Below are positions 1 to 31,757 of a stretch of 32,000 nucleotides of DNA, one piece after another (position 1 is the first letter of the stretch; each line of letters begins with the position of its first letter). Both the position numbers and the translations under genes were made by a program. The notes under the pieces were generated by a model that was not told the DNA's origin, made no database searches, and saw nothing but the letters and a program-made list of their open reading frames with translations. This DNA is from Wolbachia endosymbiont of Cimex lectularius (lineage in GTDB: Bacteria > Pseudomonadota > Alphaproteobacteria > Rickettsiales > Anaplasmataceae), in assembly GCF_000829315.1 (NCBI RefSeq), contig NZ_AP013028.1, positions 720,001-752,000 of the forward strand, written 5' to 3'.

Positions 1-218
1 AGATTTTGGCTTAGCTTGAAAACTGAGATTTTTAAATAATATTTTATTATTACGGGCACAGGATAAATTTTCACATTCAAGCATTTACTGGACCTCCAAA
101 GAGGACCTGGAGCCTAGATACTTCGATGTATGAACATTGCAACTTGTAGGTAGTTTGTGCAACAGACAGTAAGTGTTTGATACGTAAGCATTGTGATTTG
201 AGAACTCTTTTCACTAAG

Positions 219-439
219 AGGATGTTATCCCAGTGCCTGAGCACTGGGATCCAGGAATGCTGGTTGAACACTAGATTGGTAAGTATGGAAGTAATTAACC
301 TAATGTTAAAACACAGCGTCAACTTTTCCGGATTCCAAATAGGAACAACATGGAATGACACAAGAAATCTAATGTTTATTAAACCCATTTGCAAGCAAAG
401 TTTGCTGGATCCCAGTGTCAAGCACTGGGATGACATCCT
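219..439. repeat. Cluster of three hairpin (WPE/REP-like) repeats; the outer two (219-255, 405-439) are inverted copies of each other
   Basis: aggatgttatcccagtgcctgagcactgggatccagg at 219-255 is the near-exact reverse complement of ctggatcccagtgtcaagcactgggatgacatcct at 405-439. A third hairpin, ggattccaaat..atggaatgac, lies at 330-360. The same motif family recurs across the window. Confidence 0.8.
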
Positions 440-521
440 TGTGTCTGAGGCAACACTGGCTGTAAAACTTAACATAATTCAAGGAGTTTAATATCAGAAA
501 GTAGGCTGTACAACGGATACA

Positions 522-7313: not shown

Positions 7314-7623
7314 AATAGAAACGAAAAAAACTACTTGACAACCTTCACCAGTCCCCTTACAATAAAGTCGTGGGTGTTTTAGGCCTAAAATTTATCTTTA
7401 ATCTTGTATTAAGTGACAAAAGCACAGTATAAAACAAGGCGTGTTATGTTTTATTTTTGCAGCATGGACACTGCATGTCTTTATAATCTTTTGTCTACAT
7501 TAGCTGAGCCTCGCTTATTAAGCGGTGTAAGAGAGAATCGGACGCCAAGTTTTTGAGAGAACAGTAACAACTCACGTTGCGGGGTTTTTTTGTCTTTTTT
7601 TTAAATTAGTTAAAATTTTAACC
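7314..7623 (+). repeat. Promoter-bearing modular intergenic repeat, copy A (modules P-S-T)
   Basis: P: aatagaaacgaaaaaaactacTTGACA-17-TACAAT. S: ggcgtgttatgttttatttttgcagcatggacactgcatgtcttt (7438-7488). T: gctgagcctcgcttattaagcgg..acgccaag..gcggggtttttttgtctttttttt. Collinear with copies D and E. Confidence 0.8.
7335..7363 (+). promoter_or_regulatory. Near-consensus sigma70 promoter in repeat copy A
   Basis: TTGACA 7335-7340, exactly 17-bp spacer, TACAAT 7358-7363, with an upstream A-tract. Confidence 0.55.
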
Positions 7624-7640
7624 AATCTCATTTTTTTCAC

Positions 7641-7818
7641 AAAAAAACTGCTTGACAAGTTTCGACATTTCCCTTATCATAAATTATGGATATTTACAAT
7701 CCCAAGGTCAGCTACTTGTCAAGCGTATAAGGCATTAACGCCAAGTTCCTAAAATAGATATTGACCAGGGTTTCTTTTACCTTTTTTTTTATTTAGTAAA
7801 TTTTTTAAATATTAAAGC
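7641..7818 (+). repeat. Promoter-bearing modular repeat, copy B (modules P-T, no S)
   Basis: aaaaaaactgcTTGACA-17-TATCAT, then caagcgtataaggcattaacgccaag..aaaatagatattgaccagggtttcttttaccttttttttt..gtaaattttttaaatatta. This matches the second T module of copy D. Confidence 0.75.
7652..7680 (+). promoter_or_regulatory. Near-consensus sigma70 promoter in repeat copy B
   Basis: TTGACA 7652-7657, 17-bp spacer, TATCAT 7675-7680. Confidence 0.55.
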
Positions 7819-7852: not shown

Positions 7853-8086
7853 GTTGTCATTCCAGCACCATAGGGTGTCATGCCAGTGGCCCAGACACTG
7901 GCATTCAGAAATTTTACTAAGTTGGTGAGTATAAAAGTAGCTGTTTTATGTTAAAATACGACGTTTTAATGATTATGGAAAGGCTGGATGCCAGTGTCGG
8001 AGCACTGGCATGACAAGAAAAGAGTGCTGGAACGACAGGAGGAGGGGCGCTGGAATGGCATCGTTTACTATGTTCATATTATAATG
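7853..8086. repeat. Hairpin-repeat cluster plus a ~160-bp composite repeat (7924-8086) just 3' of glmS
   Basis: gtcattccagcacc..ggtgtcatgccagtggcccagacactggcattc at 7853-7908. ggtgagtataaaagt..ggatgccagtgtcggagcactggcatgacaag..aggaggaggggcgctggaatggcatcgtttactatgttcatattataat is collinear with 31633-31757. Confidence 0.8.
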
Positions 8087-10496: not shown

Positions 10497-10690
10497 TTTG
10501 CGGTAGCTGGCTGAATTTATATTTTTTAGCCATAGAAACAAAAAACTACTTGACAAATTTCTCCAGTTTTCTTATCATAAAACCGGAGGTATTCAGTTAT
10601 CTTCATCTATGCAGATTAAACGACAAGAGTATTATGGTTGGCGTTTTATGTTTAATTTTTTGCACTATGTGCACTTCATGTCTTTATTAA
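10497..10690 (+). repeat. Promoter-bearing modular repeat, copy C (modules P-S, no T)
   Basis: The left flank gcggtagctggctgaattt..ttttttagccatagaaac matches copy E. It is followed by TTGACA-17-TATCAT and the S module ggcgttttatgtttaattttttgcactatgtgcacttcatgtcttt (10640-10690). Confidence 0.8.
10550..10578 (+). promoter_or_regulatory. Near-consensus sigma70 promoter in repeat copy C
   Basis: TTGACA 10550-10555, 17-bp spacer, TATCAT 10573-10578. Confidence 0.55.
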
Positions 10691-10769
10691 TTTTATCTAG
10701 ACTTCTTGTGAACATAGAAAGTAGCTAATCTTAATTTAAAACACAATATTTTTAATTATTATGGAAAGA

Positions 10770-10866
10770 CTGGATCCCAGTGTCGGAGCACTGGGATGAC
10801 AAGAAAGGGAATACTTGGATGATATCGTCACAAAGGAACCAGCGTCAGACACTTGTATGACACCCT
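10770..10866. repeat. Hairpin repeats immediately 3' of the mutS stop
   Basis: ctggatcccagtgtcggagcactgggatgacaagaaagggaatacttggatgat, then ccagcgtcagacacttgtatgac. Same family as 405-439 and 7983-8040. Confidence 0.8.
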
Positions 10867-10872
10867 ACTCTC

Positions 10873-13392
10873 TCAAGCTTTCAGTTCCTCAAACACTTCA
10901 CTTGCTCTGTCAAGTACAGAATCAGGAAAGCCAGCGAGCTTTGCTACATGTATCCCATATGATTCATCTGCAACACCCTCAACTACTTCATGGAGAAAGA
11001 TTACTTTTCCGTTCCATTCTTTTATTTTCACACAAAAACATTTCACGTTCTTCAAGTATTTGCTTACTTTAGTTAGTTCATGATAATGAGTTGCAAAAAT
11101 GGCGCGGCACTTGTTTACATTGTGGATATGTTCAATCACTGCCTGAGCAATAGATAAGCCGTCATATACCCCTGTGCCTCTGCCGATTTCATCAAGTATC
11201 ACCAAGGAACGATCTGTTGCCTGATTGACTATGGTTGCTGTTTCAATCATCTCTACCATGAAGGTGGAATAACCAGCTGTTATATTATCTGTTGCACCAA
11301 CCCTGCTGAATATCTTGTCAATCACACCAATACGTGCACTATCTGCTGGCACAAATGACCCCATATGAGCTAAAATTGCGATGAGAGCGTTTTGCCTTAG
11401 AAAAGTGCTTTTTCCAGCCATATTAGGACCAGTGATTAGATGTATACCAGCTAAGTTAATGTTATTTGCGATAAACTTATCGTTAACTTCAACCACTGGG
11501 TGTCTTCCGCTGCAGATATTGAATTCTTTGCTATTATCAATAATGGGTTTTACGTAATTATTTTGCACTGCGAGCTCTGCAAATGCAGTTCGGATATCAA
11601 GTTTTGCCAAGGCATTTGCAGCGAGAGCAATCTTTTCAGATTCTTTAGCGATTTTACTACATAGTTCACTGAAAATTTTCATTTCTAAGCTGATTACAGC
11701 GTCACGTGCCGTGAGAATCTTATTCTCCAGTTCTTTCAATTCATTAGTAGTGTAGCGCATGCTATTTGCTAAGCTTTGCCTGTGAATAAATATGTCCGAG
11801 GTTAATTTATGATTTGCTGACACTTCAATGTAATAACCAATGATGTTGTTGTGCAATATTTTCAGTGCGGCAATGCCAGTCAGATCACGATAAGATTCTC
11901 GGAGTTTGGTTATCAATTTGTTGCTATTGTTGAGCACATAGGATAACTCTGATAATTCTTGGTTATACTTGGGGTTGATAAATCCTCCTTCCTTTGCGGA
12001 ACTTAGGTTGTTGTCAAGCACAGCGTCGTTTAGAAGCTCGAACAATTCTTTGTGATTGCCAAGGCTTTTATGTATTGTGCTAAGTTCACTCTCATCACTG
12101 CTTATCATCTGAGCAGTAGACACTGTTTCTTTTTCCTTTGATTCTACTGTCAAGCACTGGAATGACATCTGAAGGCTAGCTGCTGGTTTTTCACTTAAGT
12201 GATAACTATGTAAGGTGGACAGAAACTCGGACAACTCTAACGTTTTCCCAAGGCCTATTTTTAATAGGTTCATGTCCTTTGGTGAGCCACGCCCTAACAT
12301 TAAACGTGATAGTGACCTTTCAATATCTGGAATGTTAGATAATATCTCCCGTATTTTTTTGCGTGCTTCATGGCTGTTTACAAAAAATTCAACGGTGCCG
12401 AGTCTCAAATTAATCGCCTTAGGACAAGCAAGTGGTGATGCAAGCATTTGTTTGAGCAGGCGTCCACCAGAAGCTGTAACTGTGTGGTCAATAACTGAAA
12501 TCAGTGAACCCTTCTTTTCACCAAATTGAGTTGAAAACAACTCAAGATTTCTCCTTGCTGAAGCATCGATAAGCATGAAACTTTGTTGCCTGTAGGGCTT
12601 TGGCAGCTCAAGCCTTGGAATGGAACCCCTTTGAGTTACTCTGACATATTCAAGTAGCGCACCACATGCCACAACCTCCACTTTGCTGAAGTTTCCTATA
12701 ACTCCAAGCTCCCTGATTTTATAAAATTCGCACAGCGTTCTGTGAGACTTGTTATACTCAAAAAAACTCTGGGCATGCTGCGTAATTGATATTTTATAAT
12801 TTTTTAAAATTGACCTGATTTTTTCATCCTCAGCGAGCTTCTCGGAAATTAATAATTCTTTTGGTGATACACGCAATAAATCACTATCTAGGGCTTTCAA
12901 ATTCGTTAAAGTGTGAAAGAATTTTCCCGTTGATAGCTCAAGCCAGCCAATAGCATACTCTCCATTTTGTTCGACTATGGATGCAAGATAATTATTGCTT
13001 TTATCCTCCAGCAGCGAATCTTCGATAATTGTGCCTGGAGTTACAATTCGCACTACATCACGCTTTACTATGGATTTATAGCCCCTCCTTTTTGCTTCAT
13101 CAGCAGTTTCTAATTGATCGCAGATTGCAACTTTGAATCCTAAATCTATCAGTTTGTGCAGGTAAGATTCACTACTGTGTGCTGGCACTCCACACATTGG
13201 TATGTCTTGCCCGTATGAATTACCTCTTTTAGTGAGTACTATATTCAGCAGCTTTGCAGCTTTAACGGCATCATCGAAAAACAATTCATAGAAATCTCCC
13301 AGTCTATAGAACAACAGATGATCCTTATATTGAGCTTTCAGGTTTAAATATTGCTCCATCACAGGAGTGTTTTTTTCTCTTACAAAGTTCAT
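10873..13392 (-). CDS. mutS: DNA mismatch repair protein MutS
   Basis: 839 aa. N-terminal [19 protein letters not shown] mismatch-binding motif, Walker [14 protein letters not shown], and FATHYHEL. Confidence 0.95.
12139..12169. repeat. Degenerate hairpin-repeat copy embedded in frame in mutS
   Basis: ttgattctactgtcaagcactggaatgacatc. Its right half matches gtcaagcactgggatgacatc (415-437) with 1 mismatch; the left half is decayed. It translates as ..[11 protein letters not shown].. without breaking the ORF. Confidence 0.65.
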
Positions 13393-17255: not shown

Positions 17256-18347
17256 ATGGGCTGGGATATATCAAGTAAGCAATCTGTAAATTCAAATGAA
17301 TTAAAAGATGATCAACAAGTTAAAAATGCAATATATGATACAAATGAGTACGGTAAAAAGCTTGCTGAAGAATGTGCAGGATCCGTGTTGCCAGATCAAG
17401 AGATACAGTGCAGTCAAGAGTGTATAGGAAATGTAGGCAGTCCAGCTGTCTTAGGTGGAAAAAAGCCTGCACGGTATTTTTCTAATCAGATGCATAACTT
17501 TGACGGCGGTGCTTTGACAGACCAAGCCGGCTTACAAAATTCAGAGTCTGATTACCGTTTGGGTCAGGATAGTGAACAACAAATTCTGGGGAGCAATGTA
17601 ATAACTAGTCTTTATAATTTACTTGATCCTTTAGAGTTGTTTCGTGAAGGATTGAGTAGAAGTAAAGATAGGCAAACTTTTAATAGTATCAAACCAAAAT
17701 TGCCAGCAGCTGACTATACAGGAGAAAGTAGTGATCAAAAAACTCTTACAGACAATACAAGTGAGCGCAGTACAGAAACTAAGAAAAGTAGTGGATGGAG
17801 CTCACGGCACGTTAATCAAGAAACTCGTTGGTCAGACGAAAATGGCGAGGGGCTAGATGCTAGGTCTAATTCTGAAGAGTGTCCGTCACCAGATACTGGC
17901 TCTAATAAAGGGTGTAGCCCACCACCAGACACTGATTCTGATTCAAGTGATGGAGATTCAGAAGAATGTAGCTCCATTGATGATAATCAGACAGTTTGTA
18001 CAAGTGATTGGGGCTCAGAGGGAGACTCGAGTGGCAGCTTAGATTATTTTTCTCTTCTGGAACTCCTAGAAAAAGACCCACCGTTAGCAGAAATACCATT
18101 AGCTGAAGATGAAAAGGAATTGATTAAAGATTTTTGTGAGAAGATAAAAGGTGTTAGGGAGGAAAACGGCCAAGAATACCAAAAGAATCTGTATAATCAG
18201 AGTATAAATTGTACGAGAAATGCTTTAAAGCGTATAAAAGATTTAGTAGATAATTTGCCACAAGAGATAAGGTTAAACTCACTCTGTGATGGTCATGAAT
18301 ATACTGTATCGGGTTTAGTACTTGAGGTAATATTAGAACCTGTTTAA
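17256..18347 (+). CDS. Hypothetical acidic Ser/Asp/Gly/Pro-rich protein, 3' end truncated by an IS (stop codon supplied by the IS terminal repeat)
   Basis: 363-aa ORF with no recognisable domain. Low-complexity acidic core SPPPDTDSDSSDGDSEECSSIDD. The last codons ..LEPV* are read from the IS end gaacctgtttaa. Confidence 0.6.
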   Translation: MGWDISSKQSVNSNELKDDQQVKNAIYDTNEYGKKLAEECAGSVLPDQEIQCSQECIGNVGSPAVLGGKKPARYFSNQMHNFDGGALTDQAGLQNSESDYRLGQDSEQQILGSNVITSLYNLLDPLELFREGLSRSKDRQTFNSIKPKLPAADYTGESSDQKTLTDNTSERSTETKKSSGWSSRHVNQETRWSDENGEGLDARSNSEECPSPDTGSNKGCSPPPDTDSDSSDGDSEECSSIDDNQTVCTSDWGSEGDSSGSLDYFSLLELLEKDPPLAEIPLAEDEKELIKDFCEKIKGVREENGQEYQKNLYNQSINCTRNALKRIKDLVDNLPQEIRLNSLCDGHEYTVSGLVLEVILEPV

Positions 18348-18658
18348 AATCTTGGAAATGTGAGGTAAAGTAAGCATAGATTAATAATGAGGTGTCTATG
18401 CAGAAAAGTTATCCAAGTAATATAAGTCAAGAGCAGTTTGAAAAAATCAGGCCAATTTTGGAGAGTAGCAAGCAGAAAACAAAACCAAGAAAACTTGATT
18501 TGTATGACGTATTTTGTGGGGTGTTGTACGTCTTAAAAAGTGGTTGTCAGTGGAGGATGTTACCAAAGGGTTTTCCAAGATGGGAAAGCGTATATTACTA
18601 TTTTCGAGTGTGGAGTAAAAAGAATGGAGAAGAGCCAAGCTTGTTGGAATTAGTCTTA
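18336..18658 (+). mobile_element. Truncated IS5-family element (5' 323 bp only), + orientation
   Basis: Identical to the first ~320 bp of the full copy: IR gaacctgtttaaaatcttggaaatgtgagg and transposase N-terminus MSMQKSYPSNISQEQFEKIRPIL..SLLELVL. It ends at gtcTTA, where the IR of the next copy begins. Confidence 0.9.
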
Positions 18659-19518
18659 GAACCTGTTTAAAATCTTCGTAACAGGAGAGAAATGAAGGAG
18701 AGGACTATCATCTGTAAGCTAGTGTTGAGCTTCCGCTCGCAATTTTTCCACAATCGCCTGCACTTTTCTAACCAGGCAAAAGAGCGTTCAACAACCCATC
18801 TTTTTGGCAATACAACGAAAGTGTGTAACTCACTTCGCTTTATTACTTCAACAGTCGCACCAATGATAGCTTTTATTTGTGTTGCAAAATTTTCTCCTGT
18901 GTAGCCAGCATCAACCAGTATGTTTTTAACTTCAGAGAGGTTTGCTTTAGCATTTTCGACCATTTTCACAGCACTGCTACGGTCAGTTGCTTCTGCCGTT
19001 GTTACATAAATTGCATGTGGCAAACCTTGTGTATCAACTGCAATATGGCGCTTTATCCCTGAAATCTTTTTACCTGCATCATAGCCTTTTTTTTCAGCAG
19101 TATCTGCGTTTTTAACGCTTTGAGAATCAATTATACAAAAGCTAGTTTTCTCTTTCCGACCATTGCTGATACGGACCTCTCCAACTAATTTTTTTTAAGA
19201 CTAATTCCAACAAGCTTGGCTCTTCTCCATTCTTTTTACTCCACACTCGAAAATAGTAATATACGCTTTCCCATCTTGGAAAACCCTTTGGTAACATCCT
19301 CCACTGACAACCACTTTTTAAGACGTACAACACCCCACAAAATACGTCATACAAATCAAGTTTTCTTGGTTTTGTTTTCTGCTTGCTACTCTCCAAAATT
19401 GGCCTGATTTTTTCAAACTGCTCTTGACTTATATTACTTGGATAACTTTTCTGCATAGACACCTCATTATTAATCTATGCTTACTTTACCTCACATTTCC
19501 AAGATTTTAAACAGGTTC
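18659..19518 (-). mobile_element. Full-length IS5-family (ISWpi1-like) insertion sequence, 860 bp
   Basis: 18-bp perfect terminal inverted repeats gaacctgtttaaaatctt at both ends. Flanked by TTA (18656-18658) and TTA (19519-19521). Encodes a DDE transposase. Confidence 0.9.
18667..19462 (-). CDS. IS5-family DDE transposase in two frames (orfA 19142-19462; the second frame runs to 18667), joined at an A8 run
   Basis: orfA carries an HTH-like N-terminus. The downstream frame reads LVGEVRISNGRKEKTSFCIIDSQSVKNAD..ILVDAGYTG..VVERSFAWLEKCRRL (DDE motifs). The frames differ by +1 at the T8 run on the + strand (19189-19196). Confidence 0.85.
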
Positions 19519-19520
19519 TT

Positions 19521-19652
19521 ATGGATATTGCTAGAAAAATCGGTGTAAGATATGCGACTCTTTCTGCGTCAAGTGGTTCAGGATATCGAATCTATGAGCG
19601 CTTGGGGTTTCATACGTTTGGTCAATTTGAGTGTTTTGAATGGAGGAATTAA
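19521..19652 (+). pseudogene. C-terminal fragment of a GNAT N-acetyltransferase, 5' part removed at the IS junction
   Basis: ..DIARKIGVRYATLSASSGSGYRIYERLGFHTFGQFECFEWRN* has typical GNAT C-terminal beta strands and starts directly at the IS boundary. Confidence 0.6.
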
Positions 19653-20062: not shown

Positions 20063-20140
20063 TGCGCGGTATTTCTAACGTTGGTGATACCAATTCCACT
20101 ACACAGAAAGCGGACAGACAACAGTGGAAAAAAGCTACCC

Positions 20141-20595
20141 AATAGAAACAAAAAAACTACTTGACAAACTCCTTTAGTTCCCTTATCATAGTGTTGAAGC
20201 TATTTGTTTAACTTCCCAATCTGTACAGGTTAAAATGACAAGAGAGCTTGTATTTGGCGTACTATTGTTTAATTTTTCGCACTATGTGCACTGCATGTCT
20301 TTTTAAAACTTCGGGTTTTTACCCATACAAGCTGAAACGCGCTTATAAGTCGTTTAAGACATCACCCAACGCCGGATTTTAAAATAGAGAGTGGAATAAC
20401 TAGCTACCTCGGGGTTTTATTGTCCTTTTTCTCTGTCTGGTAAATTTCTTAAATATTATAGCTTAGACTAGTTGCGTTTAAAAGCAGCTAAATTTCAGCA
20501 TTTAAGACATAAAAACGCCAATACTAAAAATAAATACCGACCAGGGCTTCTTTTGCTTTTTTCTCCATTTGGTAAGTTTCTTAAGTATTTATTAC
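20141..20595 (+). repeat. Promoter-bearing modular repeat, copy D (modules P-S-T-T)
   Basis: aatagaaacaaaaaaactacTTGACA-17-TATCAT, S module 20256-20308, T module 20331-20460, and a second T module at about 20490-20595. By eye, closely similar to copy E across the S and T modules. Confidence 0.85.
20161..20189 (+). promoter_or_regulatory. Near-consensus sigma70 promoter in repeat copy D
   Basis: TTGACA 20161-20166, 17-bp spacer, TATCAT 20184-20189. Confidence 0.55.
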
Positions 20596-21621: not shown

Positions 21622-23583
21622 CTACCTATTTGTCAATTCACACAATTCTAAGGAAGAGTTTTCTAACTTGGCGATAGCATTATTGATTTCACTCAAATCA
21701 TTTCCTTGTAAAGCTTTTTTTGCGTTTTGCAGTAGATTTTTTAACCTTTGATCAGAGGAAAGACTATTATCGTTTTCAATCAAATGTATGAGTTTGTTGC
21801 CATTAATTTTAGCTTCTGCAAGGGAACGGGCCTTCATATCTTCATCAAAGTTGTTTATTGACTGGTTAACCATATCTTGAACATCGGCTTCACTTAAGCC
21901 AAAACTTGAATTTATTTCAACTACTTGCTCAATCCCAGTGGTTTTTTCTCGTGCAGTAACAGTCAATATTCCGTCAACATTAACTGTGAACTCTATCTCA
22001 ACTCTTGCAGAACCTGCAGGCAGTGGTGGTATACCTTTGAGTTCAAACTGCGCTAGAGATTTGTTATCTTCTATCATTTCACGTTCTCCCTGACAAACGT
22101 GAATTTTCATTGCCGTTTGCCCATCGACATAAGTTGTAAACTCTTTTGTTTCTGAAACTGGCAATGGCGTATTTCTTGGTATGATTTTTTCAACTATTCC
22201 TCCCATAGTTTCTATGCCAAGTGATAAAGGTAAAACGTCCAAGAGAATGTTCCTATCTTTTGAGCTTGAAGTTAAATAATGAGCCTGCAAGGCTGCCCCA
22301 ATAACAACTGCTTTATCTGGATCTACATCATTCAGTACCTTATTTCCAAAGAGCTTGACTAGTGAGTCGTGAACTAATGGCACTCTAGTTGCACCACCAA
22401 CTAAAATTACTCCTTTTATGTCATCAATTTTAAGATCTATATCGTCTATAGTACGAGTAACTATATTGACAGTCTTATTAACCAAGGGACTTATTGCTTG
22501 CTCGAATTCTTCTTTGGTAATTTCGCATTTAAATAATACACCATTAGCAGCACAATCTGGTGTCATTCCAGCGCGTGACGCTGGAATCCACATATTTTTT
22601 CTTTCCTGGATCCCAGTGTCAGCTACTTGGATGACAGGAGAAAGTCTAATATTAAATTTAAAAGTACCTGATGTATTTTCACTTAGGTATTCTTTTACAG
22701 TACGTAATTCAATAAGTGATGGCCCTGCCATACAAGTAGCTGACGCTGGAATCCAGTTCTTATTATATAACTTTCTGGTATGTTCATTTGCAATCAAGTT
22801 TTCTGGATCCCAGTGTCTGGGCACTGGGATGACACTTTCGGTTGAACCCACCTGTTCTCTATACTTATCGAGCACGATTGAACTTAGCAGATGGTCAAAA
22901 TCATCACCACCAAGTTTGGTATCACCACCAACTGCAAGAACTTGAAACACTCCTTGGTGTAATTTCAATATTGAAATATCAAATGTTCCGCCACCGAGGT
23001 CATAAACTGCATATATTCCACTGTTGTTGTTCTTTTCAATCGAATAAGAAAGCGCGGCGGCGGTTGGCTCGTTAATAAGGCGCAGAACTTCTATACCAGC
23101 TAATTTCGCTGCATACTTAGTTGCATTACGTGCTGGATCGTCAAAGTAAGCTGGCACAGTAATCACTGCTTTTTTTACTTCTATTCCCGTAGACTTTTTT
23201 ACCCTCTCACATAGAGCTTTCAATATCTCAGCAGATATTTCAACAGGAGTAAGATATTTCTCCTCTGCGCATTTTACCCTAATAACTTTTTCACTTTCGT
23301 TATCTATTTCAAAATTAACGCCTTCTTTGTGCAAGTCTTCAACACTTTTACCCATTAGGCGTTTTATCGAGTAAATTGCATCTGGGCCAACATCGTAGCC
23401 GATTTTCAATATGTTATTTTCATATGAAAGAGTAGAAGACAGTAGCTCACGTCCTTGTTCATCTTTAAATATCTCCACGTCACCAGCTTTATTCACTATA
23501 GCAATTAAAGAATTGGTAGTGCCGAGGTCTATACCAAACACTGTTTCATTTGAATTTGGTTCAGAAATTTGTATTGGCTGCAT
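21622..23583 (-). CDS. hscA: Fe-S cluster assembly chaperone HscA (Hsp70 family) carrying in-frame repeat insertions
   Basis: 653 aa. Hsp70 motifs GIDLGTTNS, DLGGGTFD and VILVGGATRVP. Sits last in the iscU-iscA-hscB-hscA cluster. Confidence 0.93.
   Translation of the reverse strand: MQPIQISEPNSNETVFGIDLGTTNSLIAIVNKAGDVEIFKDEQGRELLSSTLSYENNILKIGYDVGPDAIYSIKRLMGKSVEDLHKEGVNFEIDNESEKVIRVKCAEEKYLTPVEISAEILKALCERVKKSTGIEVKKAVITVPAYFDDPARNATKYAAKLAGIEVLRLINEPTAAALSYSIEKNNNSGIYAVYDLGGGTFDISILKLHQGVFQVLAVGGDTKLGGDDFDHLLSSIVLDKYREQVGSTESVIPVPRHWDPENLIANEHTRKLYNKNWIPASATCMAGPSLIELRTVKEYLSENTSGTFKFNIRLSPVIQVADTGIQERKNMWIPASRAGMTPDCAANGVLFKCEITKEEFEQAISPLVNKTVNIVTRTIDDIDLKIDDIKGVILVGGATRVPLVHDSLVKLFGNKVLNDVDPDKAVVIGAALQAHYLTSSSKDRNILLDVLPLSLGIETMGGIVEKIIPRNTPLPVSETKEFTTYVDGQTAMKIHVCQGEREMIEDNKSLAQFELKGIPPLPAGSARVEIEFTVNVDGILTVTAREKTTGIEQVVEINSSFGLSEADVQDMVNQSINNFDEDMKARSLAEAKINGNKLIHLIENDNSLSSDQRLKNLLQNAKKALQGNDLSEINNAIAKLENSSLELCELTNR
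22568..22835. repeat. Three hairpin-repeat insertions inside the hscA reading frame
   Basis: ggtgtcattccagcgcgtgacgctggaatcc and ggatcccagtgtcagctacttggatgac at 22570-22655. gctgacgctggaatccag at 22740-22765. ctggatcccagtgtctgggcactgggatgac at 22803-22833. They translate as VIPVPRHWDPENL, NWIPASATCMA and SPVIQVADTGIQERKNMWIPASRAGMTPD. Confidence 0.85.
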
Positions 23584-28800: not shown

Positions 28801-29155
28801 CTGCGCGGTAGCTAGCTGAATTCAGATTTTTTAGCAATAGAAACAAAAAAACTACTTGACAAGTTCCTCCAAACCCATTATTATAAGGTTGAAGCTATTA
28901 TTTATCTTCAGTCTGTGCAGATTAAACGACAAAAAAACTTAGTATATCTGGCGTACCATGTTTAATTTTTTGCACTATGTGCACCGTATGTCTTTTTAAA
29001 ACTTCTGGTTTTTTACCTATACAAGCTGAAACGCGTTTATAAGTCGTTTAAAACATAAAAAAACGCCAATATTATAGGATAGATAGTAAATAACTAGCTA
29101 CCGGAGTTTCTTTTGCTGTTTTTTCTCTATTCGGTAAATTTCTTAAATTTTATAG
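28801..29155 (+). repeat. Promoter-bearing modular repeat, copy E (modules P-S-T)
   Basis: The left flank gcgcggtagctagctgaattcagattttttagcaatagaaac matches copy C. TTGACA-17-TATTAT, S module 28950-29000, T module 29024-29155. Confidence 0.85.
28856..28884 (+). promoter_or_regulatory. Near-consensus sigma70 promoter in repeat copy E
   Basis: TTGACA 28856-28861, 17-bp spacer, TATTAT 28879-28884. Confidence 0.55.
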
Positions 29156-31632: not shown

Positions 31633-31757
31633 GGTGAGTATAAAAGTTATGTTAAAATGCACCATTTTCATGGGAAACTGGGTCCCAGTGTCACGCACTT
31701 GGATGACAGGAGGAGGGGCTACTTGGATGACATCGTTTACTATGTTCATATTACAAT
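31633..31757. repeat. Composite hairpin repeat just 3' of petA, collinear with 7924-8086
   Basis: ggtgagtataaaagttatgttaaaat..gggtcccagtgtcacgcacttggatgacaggaggaggggctacttggatgacatcgtttactatgttcatattacaat. Confidence 0.8.

Follow-up and report, generated by a model that had tools for sequence, protein, structure and literature searches.

How a gene for an Fe-S cluster assembly chaperone can carry several copies of a hairpin-forming repeat within its reading frame and still encode an uninterrupted protein is the question raised by hscA in a 32,000-nt stretch of the genome of the Wolbachia endosymbiont of Cimex lectularius (NZ_AP013028.1, positions 720,001-752,000; this whole stretch is referred to here as the window, and positions are given in its coordinates). 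A sequence-only reading of this stretch had proposed that three hairpin repeats are inserted in frame in hscA. The open reading frame (ORF) of 653 amino acids (aa) is indeed intact and the inserted DNA is in frame, but four hairpin units rather than three were identified, and these are grouped as two composite elements at two sites, A and B. Both insertions, designated WPE-A and WPE-B, belong to the Wolbachia palindromic element (WPE) family, which is already known and already modelled (TIGR02697 in NCBIfam; RF02625 in Rfam), and the phenomenon itself is not new. In our view it is very likely that two loops of HscA that tolerate insertions each received a copy of a selfish palindromic repeat, which is non-autonomous and persists there by keeping the frame and by adding only disordered surface peptide.

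The family identity of WPE-A is evident at the protein level. When the peptide encoded by this element was searched in isolation against TIGR02697 (WPE_wolbac), it scored 82.8 bits against a cutoff of 27.55 and was aligned to profile positions 1-35 of 36; the whole HscA protein scored 91.6 bits. One source already uses the name 'wolbachia palindromic element domain protein' for the HscA of wUni (617 aa). RF02625 (WsnRNA46, Wolbachia small non-coding RNA 46, Mayoral et al. 2014; 151 positions, gathering score 65.3), which was run in both gathering mode and E-value mode, was aligned over its full length at four places in the window, namely the two hscA elements and two non-coding copies. Of these, the copy at 206-454 on the minus strand clears the gathering score (68.6 vs 65.3 bits). 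WPE-A (22705-22851, minus strand) obtained 65.3 bits in E-value mode, which is exactly the gathering score, and was not listed when the whole window was searched in gathering mode, and WPE-B (22545-22655, minus strand) obtained 37.9 bits (E = 2.9e-06 in a 601-base search), which is under the gathering score. The consensus structure of RF02625 is a long hairpin in which unit 1 pairs with unit 2. Judging from these matches, Rfam WsnRNA46 and the protein-level WPE domain are one repeat. The suggestion that the hscA palindromes recur elsewhere in the window was borne out by a shuffled-sequence test, in which GGATCCCAGTG (at most one mismatch) was found 7 times in 32 kb vs 0.20 expected and CGCTGGAATC 5 times vs 1.06 expected, counts that none of 100 shuffles reached for either motif. 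A profile of the hairpin unit, run with nhmmer over the window, located further units outside hscA (Table 1; an additional one is at 12140-12172), and the window contains in total four full-length composites and several single units.

Both hscA elements share the same composite design, in which two hairpin units in opposite orientation are separated by a spacer and the total length is approximately 100-110 nt, and each whole composite is also one long imperfect palindrome. WPE-A is flanked by the residues KYREQVG and LIELRTVKEYL, and WPE-B, which represents a short-spacer variant, sits between Ile312 (ATT) and Asn347. As RNA, the first unit of WPE-A (A1) folds at -14.4 kcal/mol (z = -3.5) and the second unit of WPE-B (B2) at -17.5 kcal/mol (z = -3.2); the local fold of the second unit of WPE-A (A2), which is 88% complementary to the first unit of WPE-B (B1), is no better than that of shuffles (z = +0.47). 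Because the loops of A1 and B1 differ by one base, the two units are, according to the codon map, read in different frames past the loop (as ...PRHWDPE and ...ADTGIQE, respectively), and the extra base belongs to A1 in the Rfam alignment. Folded as a whole, WPE-B forms a 103-nt hairpin of -39.8 kcal/mol (z = -5.1) and WPE-A reaches -30.9 kcal/mol (z = -1.9). Since the units of WPE-B also fold locally (z = -1.2 and -3.2) and the Rfam structure is the long hairpin, both folds are possible.

Together, WPE-A and WPE-B comprise 71 residues, which equals the gap between the window protein and the common 582-aa form of Wolbachia HscA. This number is larger than the roughly 50 added residues that had been estimated from the sequence; 34 residues are exact for site B, and site A is approximately 35 residues longer than the median outside Wolbachia. 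The start of the inserted DNA had likewise been placed too far inward, at 22568, which falls within the first unit, while the insertion starts at 22546. The three peptides that had been quoted are present exactly as given, at aa 251-263, 276-286 and 315-343. Tryptic peptides predicted to span WPE junctions include FNIR/LSPVIQVADTGIQER and HWDPENLIANEHTR, and in a protein free of the element FNI would be joined to NGVLFK.

That the insertions are lineage-specific, as the sequence-only reading had assumed, is supported by comparison with orthologues, for which the HscA proteins of 24 Wolbachia were aligned along with the DNA of 16 orthologous loci, and for which site occupancy was scored in 116 Wolbachia HscA cluster representatives and in 82 HscA/Hsp70 representatives from outside Wolbachia. 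Site B is a presence/absence polymorphism; the window and two other loci (L001 and L002) carry the 102 nt there, and the site is cleanly empty in 13 loci, where ATT is directly followed by AAY. Of the 116 Wolbachia HscA clusters, 107 lack an insertion at site B and 9 have one, and none of the 82 non-Wolbachia representatives has a residue in the WPE-B columns (occupancy 0.00). The segment that contains site A (D230-K297) has 66 residues here vs a median of 31 (range 17-40) outside Wolbachia, a gain of approximately 35 aa, and it spans 27-104 aa over the 116 Wolbachia HscA. Nearly all distant homologues align in two stretches, the first ending near residue 246 and the second beginning near residue 351. 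Wolbachia HscA range in length from 570 to 657 aa, and WPE insertions account for this spread.

Other forms of the two sites were also observed. Site A measures 83-104 aa in wCon of Tribolium and in some strains named as Wolbachia of group A or group B (P0043, P0044, P0057, P0063, P0072 and P0062; loci L007 and L008), and these expanded sites contain extra segments flanking the WPE, such as SNIIPALDAQLYERCDVSMISIKKD and PPAAQTTCKLQRSYAEARDAGIYN, which may represent a second, nested type of repeat. In the HscA of a group A Wolbachia of Anomoia purmunda (P0018), both sites, A and B, are occupied by the short-spacer variant (VIQVADTGIQEEKDMWIPVSSTGMT); the presence of a short-spacer copy at site A indicates that the long- and short-spacer forms are interchangeable versions of one element. 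A TA target-site duplication was considered for WPE-B, as one reading of its junctions is TA[100 nt]TA, and was rejected since a match of only 2 bp in an AT-rich gene is not significant alone.

The position of the insertions in the protein fold was assessed with AlphaFold2, using an alignment of 105 sequences. The model of HscA has a mean predicted local distance difference test (pLDDT) score of 85.2 and a predicted template modelling score of 0.75, and besides the first ten residues pLDDT is below 50 only at residues 252-266, 268-283 and 317-345. In the predicted model the loop that joins helix 226-245 to helix 290-300 contains WPE-A, and WPE-B lies at the turn of a beta-hairpin formed by strands 305-314 and 349-356. 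Residues 247-351 align to residues 250-296 of E. coli DnaK, which we take to be nucleotide-binding subdomain IIB. The model and this alignment thus support the earlier proposal that both insertions are in surface loops of IIB. HscA functions independently of a GrpE-type exchange factor docking on IIB, and it may tolerate insertions in this subdomain especially well because it does not rely on such docking.

In the favoured account, WPE is a short, non-autonomous and selfish palindromic repeat of a family also found in the intergenic DNA of this genome. Each copy has a length that is a multiple of three and lacks a stop codon in the hscA frame; the ORF therefore remains open, and the element is most likely translated together with HscA. 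The model places both copies in IIB surface loops, one between two helices and the other at the tip of a beta-hairpin, where the extra disordered peptide probably leaves the ATPase and substrate cycling undisturbed. Once inserted, the copies behave as weakly constrained passengers, in which amino acids change fast, stems erode and composites collapse in frame.

The evolution of the inserted codons was examined in three pairwise comparisons of the window, L001 and L002, which all carry both elements in a 653-aa HscA, with the 71 WPE codons treated separately from the other 582. Constraint is relaxed in the WPE codons, where the nonsynonymous substitution rate (dN) is 0.090-0.149 vs 0.019-0.043 elsewhere in hscA and the ratio of nonsynonymous to synonymous rates (dN/dS) is 0.37-0.80 vs 0.17-0.18. 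Nonsynonymous change is therefore 3.5-5 times faster in these codons than in the remaining gene; between the window and L001, for example, 14 nonsynonymous differences were counted over 165 sites in the WPE codons and 26 over 1358 sites in the rest. The low ratio outside the elements reflects purifying selection, and hscA is therefore presumably functional. The hairpins decay as well, since the folding energy of orthologous WPE-A ranges from -54 (L007) and -45.5 (L004) through the value found in the window to about -12 kcal/mol (L002 and L012). Selection for RNA structure was considered and rejected, as L001, L002 and L012 show no compensating changes for the erosion of their stems. At site A, a comparison of L009 with L011 (70 vs 94 aa) revealed a 72-nt gap in L009, the lost stretch having the direct repeat ATYCCAGT at both of its borders, and single-unit alleles accordingly look like in-frame collapses of the composite.

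Several observations weigh against the explanation by a selfish repeat in tolerant loops. WPE-B obtained only 18.3 bits on TIGR02697, with unit 2 alone and below the cutoff of 27.55. This short-spacer variant fails the protein model because the frame in which its first unit is read is a different one, and its membership in the family is established at the DNA level. In addition, WPE-B is patchily distributed over named group A Wolbachia, the Tetranychus strain and the bed-bug-related clade, a pattern that could result from recombination, repeated loss or repeated insertion. The dN/dS values in the WPE codons derive from small counts (over the 71 codons, 5-14.5 differences are synonymous and 14-22.5 nonsynonymous), and they are below 1 in most comparisons, which indicates that the peptide or the RNA is still under some constraint and that the copies are not purely neutral.

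In a rival explanation, the WPE segments of the hscA mRNA would be functional RNA, either as targets or as precursors of small RNAs of the WsnRNA-46 type, a role that could coexist with a selfish origin. WsnRNA-46 is reported to be a small RNA that pairs with palindromes within the murD ORF, and a link between small RNAs and coding palindromes is therefore at least implicit in the literature. WPE-A and WPE-B both match WsnRNA46 on the sense strand of hscA, a non-coding copy in the same window (206-454) clears the gathering score, and the best duplex of this copy with the hscA mRNA is located at nt 737-1045 (aa 246-349), with an energy of -161 kcal/mol vs -114 +/- 5 kcal/mol for shuffles. However, complementarity is automatic for any dispersed palindromic repeat, and a duplex of approximately 250 nt is an unrealistic model of small RNA pairing, which serves only to locate the complementarity. 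Moreover, the hairpins decay uncompensated in hscA orthologues, and WPE-B is missing from most Wolbachia. It thus seems unlikely that the hscA mRNA is regulated in trans by small RNAs of the WsnRNA-46 type or processed into them. If it were, expression of an Fe-S chaperone would be tied to a repeat-derived RNA network that is specific to each strain according to the WPE copies carried. In terms of annotation, matches to WsnRNA46 within coding genes should not be taken as small RNA genes without expression data.

Alternatively, the inserted segments could have been co-opted as protein modules that provide IIB with a new interaction surface, for example for a partner or a host protein. The dN/dS of the WPE codons, which is mostly below 1, and the conservation of length and frame among the window, L001 and L002 are compatible with this possibility, and it has been proposed more generally that palindromic coding repeats feed protein evolution. 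The segments are, however, predicted to be disordered, they change several times faster than the remaining protein, and most Wolbachia HscA lack them although these proteins are presumably functional. Furthermore, the same peptides occur in unrelated proteins, hence the existence of a TIGR02697 domain model, and similar sequences have been reported in addA, addB and priA; co-option is accordingly very improbable. That the segments are ancestral HscA loops resembling the repeats by chance, or part of a misassembled gene or decaying pseudogene, is scarcely credible, for although site A varies in length in all HscA and the protein falls short of the cutoff of the HscA equivalog model TIGR01991 (683.9 vs 708.55 bits), site B is unoccupied in every non-Wolbachia representative and cleanly empty in orthologous DNA, similarity to the repeats far exceeds the shuffled expectation, the identical protein is found in more than one assembly and dN/dS outside the insertions is low, and the ancestral or chance reading is refuted by the orthologue alignments. 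The insertion of a selfish palindromic repeat into tolerant loops is thus retained as the favoured explanation.

Table 1. The hscA gene, its two inserted elements with their hairpin units, and other copies of the repeat in the window
Feature	Coordinates	Strand	Details
hscA CDS	21622..23583	-	653 aa, no internal stop (ORF list)
WPE-A, composite, site A	22723..22833	-	aa 251-287, VIPVPRHWDPE-NLIANEHTRKLYNKN-WIPASATCMAG
Unit A1	22800..22836	-	Intact 9-bp stem ATCCCAGTG/CACTGGGAT; read VIPVPRHWDPE; nhmmer E = 1.8e-11
Unit A2	22722..22758	-	Inverted vs A1, decayed stem; read WIPASATCMAG; nhmmer E = 2.1e-09
WPE-B, site B	22546..22647	-	Exact 102 nt (34 codons), aa 313-346, peptide RLSPVIQVADTGIQERKNMWIPASRAGMTPDCAA
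Unit B1	22603..22641	-	Read VIQVADTGIQE; nhmmer E = 5.7e-12
Unit B2	22556..22594	-	Stem ATTCCAGCG/CGCTGGAAT; read WIPASRAGMT; nhmmer E = 7.8e-10
Non-coding full-length copy, longer spacer	206..454	-	RF02625 68.6 bits; units 219-257, 402-439
Intergenic full-length copy	7855..8032	+	RF02625 50.8 bits, E = 3.8e-08; units 7871-7911, 7983-8019
Intergenic units in direct orientation, upstream of mutS	10769..10865	+	nhmmer E = 1.1e-11, 3.5e-05
Intergenic unit then partial unit	31676..31734	+	nhmmer E = 3.5e-11, 0.027

The gene that carries the insertions is HscA, the Hsp70 of Fe-S cluster assembly, by model, fold and genomic context. The 653-aa protein passed the HscA model NF003520 (636.2 bits, cutoff 620), and its score on TIGR01991 lies just under the cutoff because the insertions split the match. 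The HSP70 domain was matched in a Pfam scan, and the best structural matches obtained with Foldseek were DnaK (E = 2e-57, i.e., about 1e-57). The surroundings are of the isc type, as hscB and iscA lie upstream of hscA and lepB follows downstream, and the Pfam domains found in these neighbours are HSCB_C, Fe-S_biosyn (IscA) and Peptidase_S26 (signal peptidase). An identical 653-aa protein was found on 9 contigs, which come from more than one assembly and include one of >1 Mb, and this makes an assembly artefact unlikely. The close homologues bearing bacterial names are all from Wolbachia or from metagenome-assembled genomes of Rickettsiales, and the nearest genome loci are those of the C44 Wolbachia of Paracimex, a bed-bug relative, and of Wolbachia sp. 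C61_2. Among the homologues, most long forms (from approximately 612 aa upwards) bear the name 'Hsp70 family protein' and most short forms (597 aa and fewer) 'Fe-S protein assembly chaperone HscA', a difference that arises because the insertions lower the equivalog score under its cutoff. An ORF of 175 aa on the opposite strand (22418-22945, plus strand) traverses both elements and is probably not a gene; owing to the palindromic nature of the elements, its translation likewise contains peptides similar to those of WPE (VIPARDAGI, WIPVSATWMTG and AIQVADAGIQ).

Outside hscA, a degenerate in-frame unit was observed in MutS (12101-12172, within the ORF 10873..13392 on the minus strand; approximately aa 408-432; nhmmer E = 3.2e-05). 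The TIGR01070 match to MutS is in two stretches, the second of which starts at aa 430, and the peptide of this unit gave no match to TIGR02697. The non-coding copy at 206-454 is overlapped by two ORFs (77..475 on the minus strand and 177..491 on the plus strand) that are probably spurious, one of which gives a sub-threshold match to the WPE domain (20.9 bits).

The window also contains a separate intergenic repeat of approximately 250-330 nt in 4-5 copies, at 7314-7817 (two in tandem), 10529-10703, 20140-20589 and 28835-29155, and no match to Rfam was found at these loci. The core of this repeat, AATAGAAAC-AAAAAAACTACTTGACAA...TTATCATAA, resembles a -35/-10 promoter and is followed by a run of the GGGGTTTT type. 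Units of the WPE family come after this repeat at three of the four aligned loci, with a 14-nt partial match at the fourth. A further structure, at 18332-19522, consists of a 330-nt inverted repeat with 99% complementary arms that are separated by 531 nt. The ORFs within it represent fragments of an IS4/IS5-family transposase (DUF4096 twice and a DDE_Tnp_1 fragment), and the structure looks like a rearranged or partly duplicated insertion sequence element.

The practical value of these findings is modest; the locus can serve as a worked example and as a warning for annotation. It can be regarded as a clean case of a known curiosity, in which selfish palindromic DNA survives in an essential gene, probably by being translated as loops that are presumably harmless. 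Among known systems, repetitive extragenic palindromic (REP), Correia and MITE-type repeats are similar to the repeat described here in that they are short, non-autonomous and hairpin-forming and occur in many dispersed copies, and the intergenic copies in the window cluster at gene ends; classic REP sequences are, however, extragenic, whereas the family found in hscA also occurs in frame within genes, and no transposase partner was identified. NCBIfam presumably contains domain models for Rickettsia palindromic elements (RPE; Ogata et al. 2000, Science 290:347), and in an NCBIfam scan of HscA at E <= 1 the sole palindromic-element model reported was TIGR02697, which would place the hscA elements outside the RPE family. 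RPE nevertheless behave in the same way, as they are also selfish palindromic repeats, are inserted in frame in housekeeping genes of an obligate intracellular alphaproteobacterium and typically form non-structured surface segments. The genus is different, and what RPE and the hscA elements have in common is mechanism and lifestyle, not membership. The parallel with Rickettsia that the sequence-only reading had drawn therefore agrees with the published view, in which the Wolbachia and Rickettsia elements are grouped as selfish in-frame coding palindromes.

RF02625 differs from the hscA copies in that these lie within a coding sequence, with WPE-A barely at the gathering score and WPE-B well below it; Rfam defines a small RNA gene, and the same sequence behaves here as a dispersed repeat. 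The closest known system is WPE itself, which was named by Ogata, Suhre and Claverie (2005, Trends Microbiol 13:253). Later papers, which cite Ogata et al. 2005, describe WPE or WPE-like sequences that keep the reading frame of Wolbachia addA, addB and priA and do not disrupt these genes, and WPE copies are tallied among the mobile elements of wUni and wVitA. The hscA elements share with WPE the Wolbachia host and the nature of a palindromic repeat that is both intergenic and in frame within housekeeping genes, and WPE-A covers the whole 36-residue domain model with a score three times as high as the cutoff. WPE-B differs as a short-spacer variant that is recognised at the DNA level only. The two copies in one subdomain of HscA thus represent a particular instance of a known family.

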